The notes below the pieces were generated by a model. The model was not told where the DNA came from. It did no database searches and saw only the letters and a program-made list of their open reading frames with translations. Made by a program: the position numbers and the translations under genes. A DNA stretch of 51,321 bases, taken from positions 1 to 51,321 of the forward strand of contig RDOB01000011.1 in assembly GCA_011364965.1 (NCBI GenBank). Direction: 5' to 3'. The stretch is from Candidatus Heimdallarchaeota archaeon (GTDB lineage: Archaea; Asgardarchaeota; Heimdallarchaeia; Hodarchaeales; Hodarchaeaceae). This document shows, in pieces, positions 15,640 to 33,144 of the stretch (its first letter is position 1; each line of letters begins with the position of its first letter).

Positions 15640-16773
15640 TCAGTCATAGAGGGTTTTTCGTTCGCGATAGGGACGATTCATCTGCTTAATATATGACTGC
15701 AGCATTTCTGGAGTTTGATATTCTCCAAATTTTCCACCTGCGGATCGAGTTATGTTTTCTGCAAATAAAGTTCCTCCAAAATCATTACAACCGGCATGTA
15801 AAGTTGCTTGACATAACGGAATCCCAAGTTTAACCCATGAAGTCTGTATATTATGAAATAACGCTCCTAGATACAATCTTGCCACTGAATAAAACTTTAA
15901 ATAATCTAAAGTATGGAGAGAGAGTAACTCATCTTGATATTGTACTTTTAAATTGGTTTTTTTAGCAATAAAGGGTAAAGGAATAAATTCAGAAAATCCA
16001 TTAGTGTTTTCTTGTATCTCCTTTAATAACGATAAATGCGTAATCCAATGGTGCCAATTTTCAATATGCCCAAAAAGGATCGTTGCTGTCGTAGGAATGG
16101 AGCTTTGATGAGCTATTTCTATTATTTCTCTCCATTCCGATGTGGATAATTTATTGGGGCATATTTTTTTTCTAATCTTATCATCCAGAATCTCAGCAGC
16201 GGTTCCAGGCATTGAATTAAGCCCAAATTTCTTAAACTCATGGAGAACATCATCAATATCTAATTTCGCCGATTGAGCAGCGTTTAATATTTCTTGGGGA
16301 GAGAATGCATGAATATGGAGGTGGGGAGCTACTTTCCGTAAATTCGTCAAAATTTCTGAATAAATTTCGAAATTAAGTGAGGGGTGAATTCCTCCTTGAA
16401 CACAAACTTCTGTTATCTGGTATGGAGAAGTTTTCGCTATCATTTCTTTAAAATAATCACTGGAATATCTTAAATAACCATGAGTAGAGTTACTGGGAAC
16501 AGAATAAGCGCAAAATAAACATCTCTTTGTACATACATTAGTGAAATTAATATTCAGGTTCACGACATAAGTTATTTCATCACCCACCTGGCGCTCCCGG
16601 ATTATATCTGCAACATAAGACAGGATATAGATTTCTCGACCTTGAGCTTTATATAAAACCTCTAAATCTTTTGTTTCAGGAAATTCATCGTTTAATGCTT
16701 TTTTAAGAATAATTCGCAGATCTGATTTAACATTATTAAAAACAGGGAATCCTGAATCTAATTCTTTTACCGT
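15640..16773 (-). CDS. cofH: Fo synthase subunit CofH (radical SAM); true start uncertain
   Basis: TYVVNLNINFTNVCTKRCLFCAY, TEVCVQGG, HIHAFSPQE, SMPGTAAEIL, NIQTSWVKLG, NDFGGTL. Frame is open 62 codons upstream of GTG 16587, to ACG 16773, and encodes a CofH-like N-terminus. Confidence 0.9.
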   Translation of the reverse strand, partial: TVKELDSGFPVFNNVKSDLRIILKKALNDEFPETKDLEVLYKAQGREIYILSYVADIIRERQVGDEITYVVNLNINFTNVCTKRCLFCAYSVPSNSTHGYLRYSSDYFKEMIAKTSPYQITEVCVQGGIHPSLNFEIYSEILTNLRKVAPHLHIHAFSPQEILNAAQSAKLDIDDVLHEFKKFGLNSMPGTAAEILDDKIRKKICPNKLSTSEWREIIEIAHQSSIPTTATILFGHIENWHHWITHLSLLKEIQENTNGFSEFIPLPFIAKKTNLKVQYQDELLSLHTLDYLKFYSVARLYLGALFHNIQTSWVKLGIPLCQATLHAGCNDFGGTLFAENITRSAGGKFGEYQTPEMLQSYIKQMNRPYRERKTLYD

Positions 16774-17912
16774 TTTCTATACCCATCCTTTGAACATAGA
16801 TGAAATCGGTGAATAGTGTCCTCTACCTTCGATGAAAGCCATTTTGAATTAATATATTGGGGATAAACTGGCAATCTTTCCACTAATTCAAATCCGAAGT
16901 GATTAACCTTTCTTCTTAACTCATCAATTCGAGGCCATGGATGATGAGGATTAATATAATCTTTTGTAAAAGGAGAGATACCGCCCCAATCTGATATTCC
17001 AGCCTGCATAAAATCTATTTCACAACCTTCAATCAAATTGGGAGGAATTTGAACAGAAATATCCTCTGGTAGGATCAGTTTAGCTAGTATTACAACCCTT
17101 TTCAGATATTCTATACTAACTAGATGTTCATAATCCATCTTACTCTGCTCATTAGGTTGAAAAGCTTGAATAATAATCTCCTGTATATGTTGAAATTTTC
17201 TATGCATACTAGAAAGGGAATATAAACTAGACACAATTTCTTTAGGGGATTCACCAATACCTATTAATAACCCACTGGTAAAGGGAATAGAGAGTCTCCC
17301 TGCGCTCTTAATTGTATCCAAACGAATTTTAGGATGCTTTCCAGGGGATTCAGCGTGGGGCATCTTAGCCATGCATAAACGAGAGCTAATATTTTCTAAC
17401 ATTAATCCCATACTTGCTGATACCTCTTTTAAAATTTGAAGCTCTTCACTACTTAAAACACCAGCATTGATATGAGGCAATAAACCTTGTTTTAAGGCCA
17501 ATTCAGCAATATCGAAAGCATAGTCCACAGTTGAATCATAAGAATGATTATTCAACCACTTTTTAGCTTCTGAATGTACAAGCTCTGGTTTTTCCCCCAT
17601 GGTGATTAATACTTCAGAAATAGAAGATTGCTTAGCTCTTTCAAACAAGTTCTTAATTTTATTTTTAGGAACATATTCAGCTCCTAAAGATACACTGGAA
17701 CGTCGATATCCACAATAAGTGCATTTATTCCGACAAAGAAAGGTTAAAGGAAGGAAAACATTTGATGTAAAGGTTATTTTGCCCAAAAATGCTCTTTGGG
17801 CTTTTCTAAAGGCTTGACGCTCTCGAAGTTGAACCTCTTCTTGATCAGCGTCTGTTAAAAAATCAATTGCTTTAGATATTCTTATTTGTGGTTCTGTTTG
17901 ATGTAAGGACAA
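16767..17912 (-). CDS. cofG: Fo synthase subunit CofG (radical SAM)
   Basis: ITFTSNVFLPLTFLCRNKCTYC, GLLPHINAG, ASMGLMLE, PFTSGLLIGIGE, QIPPNL, DWGGISP, ERLPVYP. Confidence 0.95.
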   Translation of the reverse strand: MSLHQTEPQIRISKAIDFLTDADQEEVQLRERQAFRKAQRAFLGKITFTSNVFLPLTFLCRNKCTYCGYRRSSVSLGAEYVPKNKIKNLFERAKQSSISEVLITMGEKPELVHSEAKKWLNNHSYDSTVDYAFDIAELALKQGLLPHINAGVLSSEELQILKEVSASMGLMLENISSRLCMAKMPHAESPGKHPKIRLDTIKSAGRLSIPFTSGLLIGIGESPKEIVSSLYSLSSMHRKFQHIQEIIIQAFQPNEQSKMDYEHLVSIEYLKRVVILAKLILPEDISVQIPPNLIEGCEIDFMQAGISDWGGISPFTKDYINPHHPWPRIDELRRKVNHFGFELVERLPVYPQYINSKWLSSKVEDTIHRFHLCSKDGYRKR

Positions 17913-17918
17913 TTTCTG

Positions 17919-18608
17919 TCAACTCTGATGACAAACAGTTAAATTCAGCTCTTTCAGGACAGAAATATACCTTCTAGGATCAGAAACTTGTTGAATTTGG
18001 TTTTCTAAGAATTTAACATCTTCAATTGTATCCAAATCATGTGCAAAGGGATCGGATTCAGATACGATATAATTTAGATTATTCATTTCAGCTTGTTTTT
18101 GAAAATGATTTCTACTTCCTTCTCCAAAGGCAAAAGATAATAAATCTGGCTTCTTTAGATAAAGAATAGCAGTTCCTTGACTCGGATAAATAGATATTGA
18201 GGGAACTATCAATATGTCAGTAGATTGAGCTTTCTTGAGAGTATTCTTAAGGTAATTCTGAGTTAAAAAAGGCAAATCTGGCATTACAATCAGAATTTGA
18301 TTGGATCCATTTATCAGTCTAATGGCATCTGTAATCGCGCAATTAAGATCATTTCCTTTGTCTAAATATGTAAAAACAGCCCCTAATAATTTCGATTCGT
18401 TCAAAACTTCAATTGAAGGGGATATAACTCCAAAGGGAAGAGAAATTGATTTTATTACCTCTAAAGTGTTGTAGAATGTGATTTGAACGAGCTGATCTAT
18501 AATTGGAGCACACTGGTCTGGAAGAACGGACCGTATACGGCTTTTTGTTCTTGTGAATCCCTTTAATGGAATTAGAACTAGAATTTCAGAGGAACTCAGA
18601 GAATACAC
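17919..18608 (-). CDS. cofC: 2-phospho-L-lactate/PEP guanylyltransferase CofC
   Basis: LIPLKG..TKSR, DLN, VMPDLP, GT, FGEGS..H, DLDTIED; within the cof operon. Confidence 0.88.
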   Translation of the reverse strand: MYSLSSSEILVLIPLKGFTRTKSRIRSVLPDQCAPIIDQLVQITFYNTLEVIKSISLPFGVISPSIEVLNESKLLGAVFTYLDKGNDLNCAITDAIRLINGSNQILIVMPDLPFLTQNYLKNTLKKAQSTDILIVPSISIYPSQGTAILYLKKPDLLSFAFGEGSRNHFQKQAEMNNLNYIVSESDPFAHDLDTIEDVKFLENQIQQVSDPRRYISVLKELNLTVCHQS

Positions 18609-18645
18609 ACCTTCATACTTTCAAACGAGGAGATAAATTATTTTG

Positions 18646-19401
18646 CTAAAAGTCTTTTAATAATTCACTAAAGATTTTTTGGTTTGAAAGGGCTGCTCTG
18701 GCAATAGAAAAAAATGTAGCTCCTGCTGAAATAATTGCTGACGCAGTTTTGTAATCTTTTACAGAGTTATTTCCAATTATTGGAATATCGATATGTGTGG
18801 AATAATATGTAATAAGCTCTAGATCTGTACCATCGATTCCATGACGATAAGAATCAATATGAAGATAATTTAGAGGCCACTTGTTTAGTTTTGTAACGAA
18901 AAAATCCGGATTTATGGCCAAACCTCGGAATTTTAGTGAAATCTGAAAATCCTTTGAATTAAAGACTTTAATAATTTGCTCCAGCTCTGATAATCGTTCT
19001 AAAAGTCTTTGTCCTCCTCCAGAGGTCATAACCTCTTGTTGACGGCAATGAGCATTGATTTCTATGATGGGGAGCTCTGAAAAAGTACCATAGAAGTCAT
19101 TGGCGAATTTACGAGCATCGCTGGCATTTGCAAGCCTTAAATTTAGAATAATTCTCGATAGTGAATTAAAATATGTCAATTGCTTTTTGAAAAATGCTAG
19201 TTCTTCTCCAGCATCGGTGACAAATTCCTTTCGGCCACGAATAATTAATTCTCTGGAACTTTCTATCATTGATTTTCCGATTGGTACGCCACCAATTGTT
19301 ACCTTCCCAGCTCCTCCCTCAAAAAGACACTTTGCAGCGAAAGAACCATCTGTGACGCCAGCCATTGCAGCTAAGATACTGGGATTTTTAATAGAAGTCA
19401 T
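18646..19401 (-). CDS. Dihydrouridine-synthase-like FMN TIM-barrel protein (archaeal MJ0144-like)
   Basis: LAAMAGVTD, EINAHCRQ (catalytic Cys), SLKFR, LHID, IIGNNSV, SIARA. Only 251 aa, with no room for a DUS C-terminal tRNA-binding domain. Confidence 0.85.
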   Translation of the reverse strand: MTSIKNPSILAAMAGVTDGSFAAKCLFEGGAGKVTIGGVPIGKSMIESSRELIIRGRKEFVTDAGEELAFFKKQLTYFNSLSRIILNLRLANASDARKFANDFYGTFSELPIIEINAHCRQQEVMTSGGGQRLLERLSELEQIIKVFNSKDFQISLKFRGLAINPDFFVTKLNKWPLNYLHIDSYRHGIDGTDLELITYYSTHIDIPIIGNNSVKDYKTASAIISAGATFFSIARAALSNQKIFSELLKDF

Positions 19402-20335
19402 TAATCTGGTGTTCCATTGATCTCATAATGATCCGAGAAGCGTCCAATTCATTTTTTACAGTAATATCTTCCAAAATAGGTTCAATACCCAAATTCTTAA
19501 GTCTATTCACAAAGGAATGATCTGTTTTATCTATCATAAACGCATCTATTATCTCGGGATATAATTCAACTGTAGATAAAGGATTAGTTTCTCGTCCCCA
19601 AGCATTCAAAAATATTTTAGTAGGCCCAGAAACTGGATTATTTCCAATTATTGGACTTATTGCTATTCGAAATGCTTTTGTCTCTTTTAGAGCCTCTCGT
19701 ATCGGTTTAATGGACAAAATTGGTCCAAGCGAGGAAACTGGATTACTAGGACCAATTATTATTATTTCAGCATTTTTTATGGCATTTAATACCTCATTTG
19801 TAGTACTATTAAGATCTCCCTGAAAAAATACGTTTTTAACTTCAGGTTTCCCTTTATATTTCACCCAATATTCCTGTAAATGTAATATTTCCTCGGAAGT
19901 ACGAATAAAAGTGGTTACAGGATCATTTGACATCGGCAAGATTACTGATTTGATACCTAATTGCTTACGAATCATATCTGTTGCTTGTGTAATACTCTGA
20001 CCCTGATTCAATAACCAAGTTCTATAAAGGCATAAACTGGCATCAAAATCACCAAGATTAAACCATATTTCCTCGTTTAATCGCTTTCTTAAGAAATCTA
20101 TTAAATTAAAGGTATCTCCAGCAACACCCCACCATTTTTCCTTATCTATTATAGCAGAAAGTGTAAATAATACGCTATCAATATCGGGTGATACATATAA
20201 ACCATAAAAATTCCAATCATCCCCCGTATTTCCTATAATAGTTATCTTTTCAGGAGAAATGTCTTTGGGTATTCCTGAAAGCAGTTTAGGTGTGCCTGTG
20301 CCTCCTGACAAGAAAACAAGATTATTAAATTTCAT
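19388..20335 (-). CDS. cofD: 2-phospho-L-lactate transferase CofD
   Basis: LSGGTGTPKL, NTGDD, SPDIDSVLFTL, WFNLGD, LPMSND, HLQEYWV, IGPSNPVSSLGPIL, SPIIG..VSGP. Confidence 0.95.
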   Translation of the reverse strand: MKFNNLVFLSGGTGTPKLLSGIPKDISPEKITIIGNTGDDWNFYGLYVSPDIDSVLFTLSAIIDKEKWWGVAGDTFNLIDFLRKRLNEEIWFNLGDFDASLCLYRTWLLNQGQSITQATDMIRKQLGIKSVILPMSNDPVTTFIRTSEEILHLQEYWVKYKGKPEVKNVFFQGDLNSTTNEVLNAIKNAEIIIIGPSNPVSSLGPILSIKPIREALKETKAFRIAISPIIGNNPVSGPTKIFLNAWGRETNPLSTVELYPEIIDAFMIDKTDHSFVNRLKNLGIEPILEDITVKNELDASRIIMRSMEHQINDFY

Positions 20336-23074: not shown

Positions 23075-24073
23075 TCACTCGTTCTCAGGCACAGAGGGAA
23101 AAATCGAGCTTACATTTTCAGGATTAAAGGAAAAAATTTCGTTTGGTTTAAGAATTTGGGCTGATTTTCCAGTTTTTCCATGTATTGATCCAGGTAATCG
23201 TAATAACCGTCTTAGATCAATAGAAACCTTATGATCAATGCGAGGAACCCACCTACGTAGAATTTCATCATATTTATTTATCTTTGCTAAGCTTTTATTG
23301 AATCTCATGGAAAGATTTTGGTCTATTTTCCCATCCTGCTGTTCAATTTGTTTTTGAAAATTGGAAGCGAGACTAGAACTGAATCCCAAACTCATCAGAT
23401 CTTTTTTCCTTGCATTTTTCAAAAAGAAATCAAAAACACCATGTTCCACACGTTTCCGAAACTCATACTTAAGTGAATCACGATCTTGGACGCGAGCTGT
23501 CTCATTTTCTCCTAGTAATACTGTTAAATAGTTTATAATAGACATCCGTTGCCCTTGTCCTAGTTCAAATCCCACGCTATCTTGAACCCACCCATGAACT
23601 CCACGTCGACCTGAAAATAACCAGGTGATTTTTGACAGACCAAAATCCTCTCTTAAAGTCTCATCGATTATACTTATTGCGAGAACTACTAGCTGCCAAC
23701 AGCGAATACACACTTGATTCGCGCCTTGACAATCGCATATATGACTCCGTACTGAATCATACTCATTTAGATCAATATCAAACACTAATTCATGTCCTTT
23801 CCACTCCAGCGTATGAATTGGGTGCTCTCTGGATGGAGGCGCATCATACAAAGCACCAATATATGCATGTAGAGGAGTACGATCTGCTAGATAATCCTTT
23901 AATGCGTTTGGGGATTCAAATGAAAGGTTACGGAAGAATCGCCCGCTAGGAGGTACAAATCCAAATTCCCGATTTTCAAAATGCTCGAATGAAATAACTT
24001 GTTCTAATTCTTTCAGATTGAAATTAGTCGTATAATAATCCCTGATCGCGGTTTTGATTCCTTTTGATAACAT
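23075..24073 (-). CDS. priS: DNA primase small (catalytic) subunit, eukaryote-like
   Basis: REFGF, ELVFDIDLNEYD, Zn knuckle CDC...CIRCW, LREDFG, FSGRRGVHGWV, PRIDHKVS, RLLRLPGSIHGKTG. ATG 24073 follows the priL stop. Confidence 0.95.
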   Translation of the reverse strand: MLSKGIKTAIRDYYTTNFNLKELEQVISFEHFENREFGFVPPSGRFFRNLSFESPNALKDYLADRTPLHAYIGALYDAPPSREHPIHTLEWKGHELVFDIDLNEYDSVRSHICDCQGANQVCIRCWQLVVLAISIIDETLREDFGLSKITWLFSGRRGVHGWVQDSVGFELGQGQRMSIINYLTVLLGENETARVQDRDSLKYEFRKRVEHGVFDFFLKNARKKDLMSLGFSSSLASNFQKQIEQQDGKIDQNLSMRFNKSLAKINKYDEILRRWVPRIDHKVSIDLRRLLRLPGSIHGKTGKSAQILKPNEIFSFNPENVSSIFPSVPENE

Positions 24074-24074
24074 T

Positions 24075-25400
24075 TTAGTCCTCTTTGTCTTTTTTCTCTG
24101 CAAGTTTCGAGCTTTTCTCTTCTAATAACCCCTCAACTTTACTTGCATATCTAGTCCATTGCATAGGATGAGCGATATTCCGATATAAAGATCGTCCATA
24201 TACCACTGGAAAGTATTGGCTGCAAGCTAAAGTAGGGTTACTAGAGCTTAAAGAGATCATTCTTTCTAGTTGTTTCTGGGATGGAACTATAGATTTACGT
24301 TTCACCAAGTGATTTTGGGTTAAAAACTCCCCAAGAATGTTGGGAGCAAGGTGAACAAAAGGACAGAAGTAACTTGTAGCAATTGTTGAGCATTTAGGAA
24401 TATTATAATCCTTTTTGCCACCTTCTAAACCATATAAGTGACGTATCTGATACCCCGAGGTTCGAATAAACTCCTCAAACCTGACTCCAACATTATCAAC
24501 TGATTTCTCAAACCAGTAATGGAGTTGTTCGTCTACAGTCATCCCTATTTTCTTTAGAAAAAAGCCCAATTGTAATCGATACGCATGTATAAGTCTTCCA
24601 GTTTTTTCAAATTCAGAAAAAAGATAAATCATACAGGGTGGAAAAATTTCGGGATGAGATTGCAAATCTTTTCCTTCAAAATCCGTTTCGGAAAATCTTG
24701 ATCGAATTTGGGCATGTTTTGCTACATACTGCTCAATTTCTTTAACAGCAATATCAATTGTTTCTCTGGTACCAAGCAAATCTCTCGCATTCTCAATTTC
24801 TATCTGTAATTTCTTCTCAAAAGCCTTTTTTAAACTACCAATGAATTCTTTGTGATTTGCGATCACCCACCCTTTTCTAAGATATCCCTTGCGTTTGGAA
24901 ATCATTGGGGGGACTTGAGTAAAAAAGACACAGATGAGAAAGTTTTGGGTTGTTGAACGAGGACGTGAGTGATATTCTTGATAAAGAGCGGCTAAATTCT
25001 GGTTATCTTTCTCATCGTTCTTATATTTAAATACTTCGTACTCCATAACGTTTTCTTTGCCAAATAATTCCTGAAATATTGTTTTCTTTTCATCAGGATT
25101 AGCACGATCATCGTAAAGTCGTTCGAAAAGATCTCCTTCCAGCTCGATCAACCAGGCTTCTAATCGACGGTTTGTAGCTGCAACTAATCTAAGTAAATAT
25201 GCACCTAATCGGTATTCAGAATAAATTCTATCCAGTTGTCTGTCCTCTGTTATTGGAAAATAGTCTCTAATCACTCGTGAGGGATCTTGAGGTAATTCTT
25301 CAAGTAATTTCACGCGATCGAATGCTAGCTCTTTCCATTGACTAATCTCGATGTTGAGATCAGGAGGAGTCTGTAATATATACCAGTTGGGTAATATTAT
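24075..25400 (-). CDS. priL: DNA primase large subunit with [4Fe-4S] C-terminal domain, eukaryote Pri2/PRIM2-like; true start uncertain
   Basis: FPPCM, RLQLGFFLKKIG, YQIRHLYGLEG..DY..PKC, CPF, ACSQYF, HP. Frame extends upstream of GTG 25313 to 25412 and encodes WYILQTPPDLNIEISQWKELAFDRVKLL. Confidence 0.92.
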   Translation of the reverse strand: MILPNWYILQTPPDLNIEISQWKELAFDRVKLLEELPQDPSRVIRDYFPITEDRQLDRIYSEYRLGAYLLRLVAATNRRLEAWLIELEGDLFERLYDDRANPDEKKTIFQELFGKENVMEYEVFKYKNDEKDNQNLAALYQEYHSRPRSTTQNFLICVFFTQVPPMISKRKGYLRKGWVIANHKEFIGSLKKAFEKKLQIEIENARDLLGTRETIDIAVKEIEQYVAKHAQIRSRFSETDFEGKDLQSHPEIFPPCMIYLFSEFEKTGRLIHAYRLQLGFFLKKIGMTVDEQLHYWFEKSVDNVGVRFEEFIRTSGYQIRHLYGLEGGKKDYNIPKCSTIATSYFCPFVHLAPNILGEFLTQNHLVKRKSIVPSQKQLERMISLSSSNPTLACSQYFPVVYGRSLYRNIAHPMQWTRYASKVEGLLEEKSSKLAEKKDKED

Positions 25401-25620
25401 GGCAAATACATCCTATCTAACTAATCAATTTTTTATGACGCTCAAAGAGAATACATGAGTAAACGTTTCTTAAATCCTTCAGTTTTCAGTTACCGAACAA
25501 TTTATGTGAATCAACTTTCCTTTTAGAGATTTTTAGTAATATGGTATCAATACAAACTTTCAAAGTTGATTGATTAAGTAATTATTAATAATCACCTGCA
25601 ATTTTTCGTGATTTATACTG

Positions 25621-30885: not shown

Positions 30886-33144
30886 CTAAAGTTCTAATTC
30901 AGGATTGGAGGAAGTTAATATAGTTTTTATTCGTAGAGCTAGCTTTTTTCCGATTCCTTCAACACGTTCGATTTCTTCGAGAGTTGCCTCTGCTATTGCA
31001 TTAATAGTATGAAAGTCTTTTAATAATGCTTTTGCTTTTGTAATATTAATTCCAGGAATCACGGATAACATATAAGTTTGTACTTCACGGATGGTTGATT
31101 CTTTTCTTGAAATGGATGGCAAACTGATTCCAGTTCTCTCTGTATATTGCTCACGTTTAGCTAAGTTAAAAAGTAGACTAGCAGTTTCTAAATCTCCCTG
31201 TGTATAAACAATGGGGATATTAAAGTCGAGGATGATAGAACTCAAAGCACCCATAATACTATTTACGTTAATTTGCCGTGTAGGCATTTCAGAATCAAGC
31301 TGGATTATTAATAATGGTAGTATTTGTTCAGCTAACCTCTCCAGCTGTGAAGATTGACCCGAAGTACTAGATTGAAATAACCGTCCGTCAATAATAGAAT
31401 CAATGAAATCTTTGTAAGATTTTCTTTCTACAATTAATCGATCTGATAATATATAATCACCAACAAGGAGATTTTTGGGTTTGATTTGTGCTCCCTTCTC
31501 TTTCAGTAGTTTGGGAATTTTACTAGTGGATTCCCTAACATCAACATAGACTTGGGGGCTTTTACTCTTTTCCTTATCTATCTCTGACTTCTCGTCACCT
31601 ACAGAGAAATATTTATCGAGCGTCTCCGAAGCAGCTTTTTGTTCCTGTGAGGAGAGTAACTCAGGTAGATCATGTTTCAGGAATTTTTTCATCTGTTGGT
31701 CTTTTCGTTTGATCGCCCAATACATCGCTTCATCACGAGTACCTTTAGTAACAAGATGAATTACTTTTGACTTCTTCTTGCGACCTCGGCCGCGACGTTG
31801 CACTGCTCGTACAACAGAGGGAACTGAATCATAGAAAACAACAAGGTCGCAATTTCCCACATCTAAGCCTTCTTCCCCAACTGAAGTACTTAGCAAAATA
31901 TTCAGATCACCCTCTTTAAAGGCTTTCACAACATCCAACTGCTGCTTTGAAGAAAGCCCCTTGTCAGCAGATGTACTAGAATGTCCCACAAATATATCAG
32001 AAACAATTCCAGCTTTGGACAAGGCAGAATGAAGGAAACGGACTGTGTCTCGAAAATTACTGAAAATGATTATTTTAGATTTGTAAGAAGTTAGATTGGA
32101 TAAAGAGTGTTTGATTTCTTTTACAAGATGATCTAACTTTGGATGAATGAGCGAATCATCAACAATGGCTGACTCGATTCGGATGGTCCTTTCATCCTCA
32201 AGAAAAAGACGTAAAGCTTTTGAGGAGGATTTCTTTCTCCATTTCTGAAGCGCCTGATATGCTTGAGGGAATCCTTGGCTTTCTACAAGCTCTTGTAAAT
32301 GTTGAACTCGAATGAGATTTGAAGTAGCAATGAGAAATTCTCCATATTGAGGATCTTCTTTTGTTAACTGAACCACCTGTTGATGATAAGCTAATGCCTC
32401 ACGTTTACCAATATAACGAGATTTTTCAAGTGAAGGAAGGCTTTTTGTCAGATTAGATATAATTTCATCTTGAAAGTTCTGAAGGATAGTAAGTACATCC
32501 TTATAAACCTCAGGTAAATGAATCCACACGACTTTAGGGGTATGAAGGGAAACATAATCGGCAACTGAAGCCTCGCTTGGGTCAGTAAAGGAAATGTAAG
32601 AGATTTTGAGATTATTACAGACTTCTAGTATTTTATTTGGGTTGTTTCCTGGTGTAGCAGTAAACCCAACAATTTTCTTCTTCATCTGGGAAGTGATTCC
32701 AACATATGCATAATCTCCTGTTGCTCTATGAACTTCATCAATACACATCAAGCTAATATTATTGAGATTCAATCGAGAATATGTCAAATCATTTTCAACT
32801 GTTTGGGGTGTACCAACTATTATTTTTGCATTTGGATAAAGCTCAGTCCGTTCTTCAGGTTTAATTTCTCCAGAAATCTCTAAAACCAATTCTGGGGTTA
32901 AATTGCCAATGAACTGAGTCATCATCTCCTTAATTTGTCGGACTAATGGTCTGGTAGGAGTAAGGACTAAAATTTGTTTCGAGGGAAATTTTTTTAGGAA
33001 AAAAGCGGCAAGATATGCCATAATAACGGTTTTTCCAAGTCCAGTTGGAAGTACAACCAATATATTTCCAGAATGTGAGACACAATCTGAGAAAATCACC
33101 TGTTGATAAATCCGTGGTTCAATATTGGTTAATAACTTGTTCAA
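30886..33144 (-). CDS. hef: Hef (FANCM/Mph1-like SF2 helicase + ERCC4/XPF nuclease + HhH2)
   Basis: LPTGLGKT, DEVHRA.GDYAY, TATPG, STSVGEEGLD, QRRGRG, VGDY...VERK...DGRL, IPGI..., VEGIG. Confidence 0.95.
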   Translation of the reverse strand: MNKLLTNIEPRIYQQVIFSDCVSHSGNILVVLPTGLGKTVIMAYLAAFFLKKFPSKQILVLTPTRPLVRQIKEMMTQFIGNLTPELVLEISGEIKPEERTELYPNAKIIVGTPQTVENDLTYSRLNLNNISLMCIDEVHRATGDYAYVGITSQMKKKIVGFTATPGNNPNKILEVCNNLKISYISFTDPSEASVADYVSLHTPKVVWIHLPEVYKDVLTILQNFQDEIISNLTKSLPSLEKSRYIGKREALAYHQQVVQLTKEDPQYGEFLIATSNLIRVQHLQELVESQGFPQAYQALQKWRKKSSSKALRLFLEDERTIRIESAIVDDSLIHPKLDHLVKEIKHSLSNLTSYKSKIIIFSNFRDTVRFLHSALSKAGIVSDIFVGHSSTSADKGLSSKQQLDVVKAFKEGDLNILLSTSVGEEGLDVGNCDLVVFYDSVPSVVRAVQRRGRGRKKKSKVIHLVTKGTRDEAMYWAIKRKDQQMKKFLKHDLPELLSSQEQKAASETLDKYFSVGDEKSEIDKEKSKSPQVYVDVRESTSKIPKLLKEKGAQIKPKNLLVGDYILSDRLIVERKSYKDFIDSIIDGRLFQSSTSGQSSQLERLAEQILPLLIIQLDSEMPTRQINVNSIMGALSSIILDFNIPIVYTQGDLETASLLFNLAKREQYTERTGISLPSISRKESTIREVQTYMLSVIPGINITKAKALLKDFHTINAIAEATLEEIERVEGIGKKLALRIKTILTSSNPELEL

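Follow-up and report, generated by a model that had tools for sequence, protein, structure and literature searches.

A eukaryote-like primase gene pair of the Heimdall group in a Hodarchaeum genome, with a probable AUA start codon in priL

The present study examines a priL-priS gene pair on the minus strand of the window, by which we mean the whole stretch of 51,321 nucleotides that was analysed. With a probability of about 0.93, the pair encodes the replicative primase native to a species of Hodarchaeum, present in single copy, and is an ordinary member of the Heimdall group of Asgard primases. Eukaryote-like primases in Heimdall-type Asgard archaea are already known from two papers of 2025 (PMC12680538, PMC12770985). 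One of these, Li et al. 2025, defined the Heimdall group, gave its YxG motif, and named the Hodarchaeales within it (PMC12770985), and its hosts are Heimdall/Wukong/Sif/Njord archaea. Every sequence and structural feature that marks the group was found in the PriS and PriL described here. The sequence-only reading from which this work started had cautioned that novelty would depend on taxon, and with a host in the Hodarchaeales, named as carriers by Li et al., the caution was well placed. Heimdall-type eukaryote-like primases are relevant to an origin of the eukaryotic replisome in archaea, a point already made in 2025 with phylogeny, structure, and biochemistry, and the locus is one more Hodarchaeum example. 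The probable AUA start of priL and the catalytically dead PolD of the host are two small additions to the published picture.

Features of the two genes and their products

Both genes are uninterrupted open reading frames, and all of the PriS and PriL motifs quoted in the sequence-only reading are present in the minus-strand translations. The features are as follows.

25409..25414, minus strand: purine-rich Shine-Dalgarno-like hexamer AGGATG, 8 nt before the ATA, proposed from sequence only
25398..25400, minus strand: ATA, probable non-canonical start codon of priL, from homology with congeneric loci
24075..25400, minus strand: priL, Heimdall-type (p58/Pri2-like) primase large subunit, 441 aa from the probable AUA start
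25311..25400, minus strand: conserved PriL N-terminal segment TPP..NI...LA.DRVKLL, from alignment to 4rr2/8vy3 chain B
24222..24635, minus strand: PriL Fe-S domain with ligand cysteines C256, C337, C346, and C393, numbered from the AUA start
24135..24344, minus strand: PriL C-terminal helical extension, residues 353-422, present in eukaryotes as well
23075..24073, minus strand: priS, Heimdall-type (p49/Pri1-like) primase catalytic subunit, 332 aa
23855..23863, minus strand: PriS motif G/S, Y71-I72-G73, the Heimdall-group YxG defined in PMC12770985
23699..23779, minus strand: PriS residues D99 and D101 of motif I, and the short Zn knuckle of eukaryotic type (C113, C115, C122, C125)
23234..23596, minus strand: PriS from His160 of motif II through Asp280 of motif III, with an intact catalytic core

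PriL matches PF04104 (DNA_primase_lrg; Pfam, E 2.9e-42) and PriS matches PF01896 (DNA_primase_S; Pfam, E 1.5e-31), with PriL the longer of the two (441, or 412, versus 332 aa). The priS ATG at 24073 lies 1 nt past the priL stop, where most congeners have a 4-nt overlap, and the pair otherwise stands alone between one divergent and one convergent gene. Judged by this arrangement, the two genes probably form an operon. A promoter and terminator scan found no excess over shuffles with a consensus that is bacterial and not suited to archaea. The genome (2.97 Mb) holds one priS match, one priL match, and no extra Loki-type PriL that we could find, and at 87% completeness the assembly may have missed a further primase or a functional PolD. 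In another family of the same class (f5), the two primase genes are not in tandem but on opposite strands, separated by a few kb.

In PriS, D99 follows G73 by 26 residues, the Heimdall group being recognized by a YxG about 25 residues before motif I (PMC12770985). Residues D99, D101, H160, and D280 and three of the Zn-knuckle cysteines are invariant in the alignment, and the knuckle has a 3-residue insertion specific to Hodarchaeum. Scores of PriS against PDB sequences were 112–128 bits for eukaryotic proteins and 63–67 bits for archaeal PriS, and a profile made from eukaryotic PriS alone gave 199 bits for the PriS studied, 165–236 bits for Heimdall-type proteins, and 28–74 bits for canonical Asgard ones. 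AlphaFold models of PriL and PriS had mean pLDDT of 90 and 93. By Foldseek, the PriS model reached TM 0.75–0.80 with human p49, 0.63–0.66 with Pyrococcus, and 0.53–0.55 with Saccharolobus, which is the order of fold similarity reported for Gerd_ePriS (PMC12770985). For PriL, only eukaryotic p58/Pri2 were found among PDB sequences at E≤1e-3, and the C-terminal domain gave TM 0.77–0.81 to eukaryotic p58C, normalised by target. Hodarchaeum PriL also scored highest against a profile of eukaryotic sequences only, but this ranking is biased, the sequences having been chosen for their similarity to the PriL studied. Eukaryotic matches are thus ahead of archaeal ones by sequence and by predicted fold, in agreement with the eukaryote-like pair that had first been proposed.

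The four Fe-S cysteines had been counted among the eukaryote-like traits. They are present and are invariant in a 48-row alignment including eukaryotes, but canonical archaeal PriL aligns four cysteines as well, and they are not specific to eukaryotes. What is diagnostic of eukaryote-type PriL is not the fourth cysteine itself but the ~50 additional residues that surround it. The segment 353-422, helical in the model with pLDDT mostly above 90, has 63–73 residues in Heimdall-type proteins and 61–75 in named eukaryotic ones, versus 18–40 in canonical ones.

Likeness to described systems follows the same lines. Gerd_ePriS/Gerd_ePriL from Ca. Gerdarchaeota archaeon B18_G1 share with the present pair adjacent priL-priS genes, YxG, extra C-terminal helices, and identical spacing of the catalytic residues and Fe-S cysteines; the 3-residue Zn-knuckle insertion, the probable AUA start, and a catalytically dead host PolD set the present pair apart. 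Identity of PriL to other Heimdall-class families is about 31–36%. The Heimdall clan of Feng et al. 2025 has PriL larger than PriS, a gain of three helices around the Fe-S cluster (PMC12680538), and a primase gene pair that is kept together (PMC12680538), as is also the case here. Eukaryotic p49/p58 (PRIM1/PRIM2, Pri1/Pri2) provide the best PDB sequence and fold matches and resemble the pair in the short Zn knuckle and, for p58, in the N-terminal segment and Fe-S domain of PriL, but identity is about 20–30% and motif G/S is YIG here as opposed to the eukaryotic D/ExG (PMC12770985).

Primer synthesis and transfer in a host with an inactive PolD

Several steps may be proposed for the working of the pair. 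From the gene arrangement seen, priL and priS would be co-transcribed and translationally coupled, with full-length PriL presumably made from the weak AUA start. PriS and PriL would then form a tight heterodimer, as does the Gerdarchaeales orthologue Gerd_ePriSL with a KD of about 3 nM (PMC12770985); that enzyme makes short primers, with PriL-dependent shortening, and prefers dNTPs (PMC12770985), the preference being a difference from eukaryotic primase. By analogy, the D99/D101/D280 metal site of PriS would make short primers and the helix-wrapped Fe-S domain of PriL would aid initiation and limit primer length. A B-family polymerase, either a Pol-epsilon-like PolB or a PIP-box PolB, would probably take over the primers and is the most likely enzyme to extend them, because the only DP2 (C13:10970-14296) has lost both catalytic aspartates, with Ser and Asn in place of P. 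abyssi D956 and D958 (CSGNID versus CDGDED). D956 is lost in the DP2 of congeners too, and the lack of an active DP2 in the group containing Hodarchaeum was reported in 2020 (PMC7544198). Hodarchaeum, with its dead PolD, is a good setting in which to ask which polymerase receives the primer.

The polymerases of the genome are three PolBs, one DP1, and one DP2, none classified as Pol alpha. A 1470-aa PolB frame (C9:182015-186427) has Pol-epsilon-like motifs and one C-terminal Zn finger and is probably of the known B10/PolB1 type. A 901-aa PolB frame (C13:58732-61437, minus strand) has at its end a canonical PIP-like motif resembling primase-binding tails, which makes it a candidate primase partner.

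It is possible, if unlikely, that the pair additionally works within a proto-primosome, in which PriL would be held by its N-terminal domain, either at the C-terminus of the catalytically dead DP2, together with DP1, or at the PIP-like tail of a PolB, on the model of the Pol alpha C-terminal tail that holds p58. The tail of the 901-aa PolB, the notably p58-like N-terminal segment of PriL, and the retention in the dead DP2 of its C-terminal Zn finger domain and of a GPRxTxL tail conserved across the genus are all consistent with such a tether, as are the two-hybrid tests in which heimdallarchaeal PriL binds the DP2 C-terminal domain (PMC12680538) and the finding that the C-terminal PIP of P. 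abyssi DP2 binds primase and resembles a Pol alpha motif (PMC7101311). However, the two-hybrid result belongs to another genus, the interaction having been described for Ca. Heimdallarchaeum endolithica, and the Hodarchaeum DP2, besides being inactive, has a tail without the paired aromatics of the C-terminal PIP, whereas Heimdall-class relatives with an intact DP2 have a full PIP box. The primase-binding motif of the Hodarchaeum tail appears from its sequence to be degenerate, and no Pol alpha or Pol alpha B subunit is known from Asgard genomes (PMC12770985). Complex prediction for PriL 1-230 with the C-terminal 125 residues of DP2 gave a score of 0.00, the fold of the partner being uncertain, and was counted neither for nor against the tether. 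Still more doubtful is the suggestion that the dead DP2-DP1 is purely a scaffold for primase, with primers handed to the B-family (Pol-epsilon-like) polymerase. If true, Hodarchaeum would preserve, in a living archaeon, a stage of the layout known from eukaryotes, where primase is tethered by a B subunit and a C-terminal domain derived from PolD, and synthesis falls to a PolB.

The start of priL

Gene callers begin PriL at a GTG at 25313, which yields 412 aa versus 435–453 aa in most congeners, and the sequence-only reading gave 23075-25412 for the pair. The gene pair within that span stands, but its end at 25412 is merely the first codon following an in-frame stop, and translation of priL most likely begins at an AUA at 25400, as comparison with congeneric loci indicates. 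At the homologous codon the 17 congeneric loci have ATG (six), TTG (six), GTG (two), or CTG (two), except for a single locus whose N-terminus is different. In many congeners AGAAGGA occupies the position of the putative Shine-Dalgarno-like hexamer. The N-terminal segment, which closely resembles human p58 residues ~30-50, is missing from the database gene call. As the start is probably the AUA, the database PriL is shortened by 29 residues; entries for this species are without the 29 most p58-like residues, and the gene is best cloned from 25400.

An alternative explanation is that priL is 5′-truncated or decaying in this lineage, with only the 412-aa GTG product made, or that the ATA reflects an assembly error. 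This could account for the finding that no ATG, GTG, or TTG occurs in frame upstream of the conserved N-terminus, and AUA starts are not routine here, priL being the only clear case when starts were compared in orthologue pairs anchored with two congeners (119 and 95 pairs). Nevertheless we consider it improbable, since the N-terminal residues are conserved about as well as the rest of the protein, the same codon is CTG in two congeners with weak starts in most, and no other priL was found in the genome. Against an assembly error, contigs from three studies have SNPs at other positions but neither base change nor indel at this site.

The same comparison bears on how an AUA start is to be understood. 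With priL the sole clear case among the 119 and 95 pairs, a genome-wide relaxed start-codon rule is unsupported, and the priL AUA would therefore be gene-specific weak initiation and not a relaxed code. Across Hodarchaeum the use of ATG, TTG, GTG, CTG, or ATA at a single codon suggests that weak initiation of priL is tolerated or selected. A 4-codon ATG mini-frame that overlaps the ATA showed no conservation in congeners and was taken as chance.

Phylogenetic position and native origin

Asgard genomes contain two primase classes, one with a short PriS and a long PriL and the other the reverse. Maximum likelihood trees were built with IQ-TREE; they are unrooted, are without euryarchaeal PriL including the Thermococcales type, and represent eukaryotic PriS by fungi and animals (opisthokonts). 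Both PriS and PriL nest inside Hodarchaeum at 100/100. A 100/99 branch in the PriS tree parts Loki-type Asgard, TACK, and haloarchaeal sequences from Heimdall-type and eukaryotic sequences together with the PriS studied, and the equivalent branch in the PriL tree has 100/100 with TACK rows in or out. Forcing Hodarchaeum PriS, including the one here, into a clade with TACK PriS was rejected (p-AU 6.6e-5). In these trees, then, neither subunit branches within canonical PriS or PriL, a placement that the sequence-only reading had named as contrary to its claim. Eukaryotic PriS are a clade of their own at 100/100 with the present PriS outside, and likewise for PriL.

A position of eukaryotes beside the Hodarchaeales was considered and set aside. 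One PriL tree had the Heimdall type monophyletic; another placed eukaryotes and a set of orphan PriLs beside Hodarchaeales with 84/79, which became 32/61 once the orphans were removed; and PriS placed eukaryotes elsewhere with weak support. Attachment of eukaryotes within the Heimdall-type group is thus unstable and unsupported, so that Hodarchaeales are not singled out, and there was little support for the topology in Feng et al. 2025 too (PMC12680538). The orphan PriLs, encoded on JGI contigs, form a clade that falls either between Heimdall-type and eukaryotic PriL or alongside them. They have eukaryote-type length (444–453 aa), four cysteines, and C-terminal helices, with no adjacent priS and with neighbours that are mostly unknown, restriction-modification, or phage-type radical SAM genes, and may derive from mobile elements or from a lineage not yet sampled.

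We give almost no credence to the view that the pair is an archaeal PriSL of the canonical kind and its resemblance to eukaryotic primases an artefact of the sequence-only reading. Canonical PriSL (Pyrococcus, Saccharolobus, Loki-group Asgard) does have the AEP fold, two subunits, four cysteines, and priL-priS order in common with the pair, and the PriS here passes the cut-off of TIGR00335, the NCBIfam archaeal PriS equivalog. However, fold scores of canonical proteins against the models were lower, and the DIDADH-type motif I, long Zn insertion, and xxS motif G/S, with Ser in third place, of canonical PriS rows are absent from the PriS here, the YxG being found in Heimdall-type rows. Grouping with TACK PriS is rejected by the AU test noted above, and in the Loki and TACK types PriS is larger than PriL and the C-terminal helices are missing. 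At canonical loci priL and priS are clustered behind pcna, with gins next in two of the three, and Loki/TACK-type genes often lie within a pcna-gins cluster, from which the present pair is detached. The canonical reading is excluded for Loki, TACK, and haloarchaeal types, with the Thermococcales type compared by PDB score and fold only.

Eukaryotic contamination or recent transfer from a eukaryote is excluded: the best matches beyond Heimdall-type Asgard archaea are eukaryotic, but both proteins lie within Hodarchaeum and outside the eukaryotic clade, contig GC is 34.6% versus 34–38% in the other contigs of the genome, neighbours include CofD, CofH, and a Hef-type helicase-nuclease, and orthologues with the same flanking genes occur throughout the genus, which shows the pair to be neither contamination nor a recent import. 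The nearest named loci, at 65–70% identity, are from Hodarchaeales, and Ca. Hodarchaeum mangrovi is of the same genus as the host. Congeners carry the same flanking genes, for a methyltransferase, a lipoate ligase, CofD, and an LPG synthase, at 52–66% identity, and contigs from three studies cover the stretch with 1–3 differences each; this conserved synteny and the near-identical contigs bear out the archaeal origin argued in the sequence-only reading.

Some minor observations concern the surroundings. At position 24537 the base in the window differs from all three covering contigs (a synonymous Thr codon) and may be a private variant or an error. The window also contains an F420 biosynthesis-like cluster (15640-20335; CofH-type and second radical SAM proteins, CofD) and a Hef-type helicase-ERCC4 nuclease gene (30886-33144), which are ordinary archaeal genes near the primase pair. 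Between 33439 and 48900 there are several large open reading frames of 560–1194 aa, with Pfam matches that are either none or only zinc-ribbon or Ig-like.
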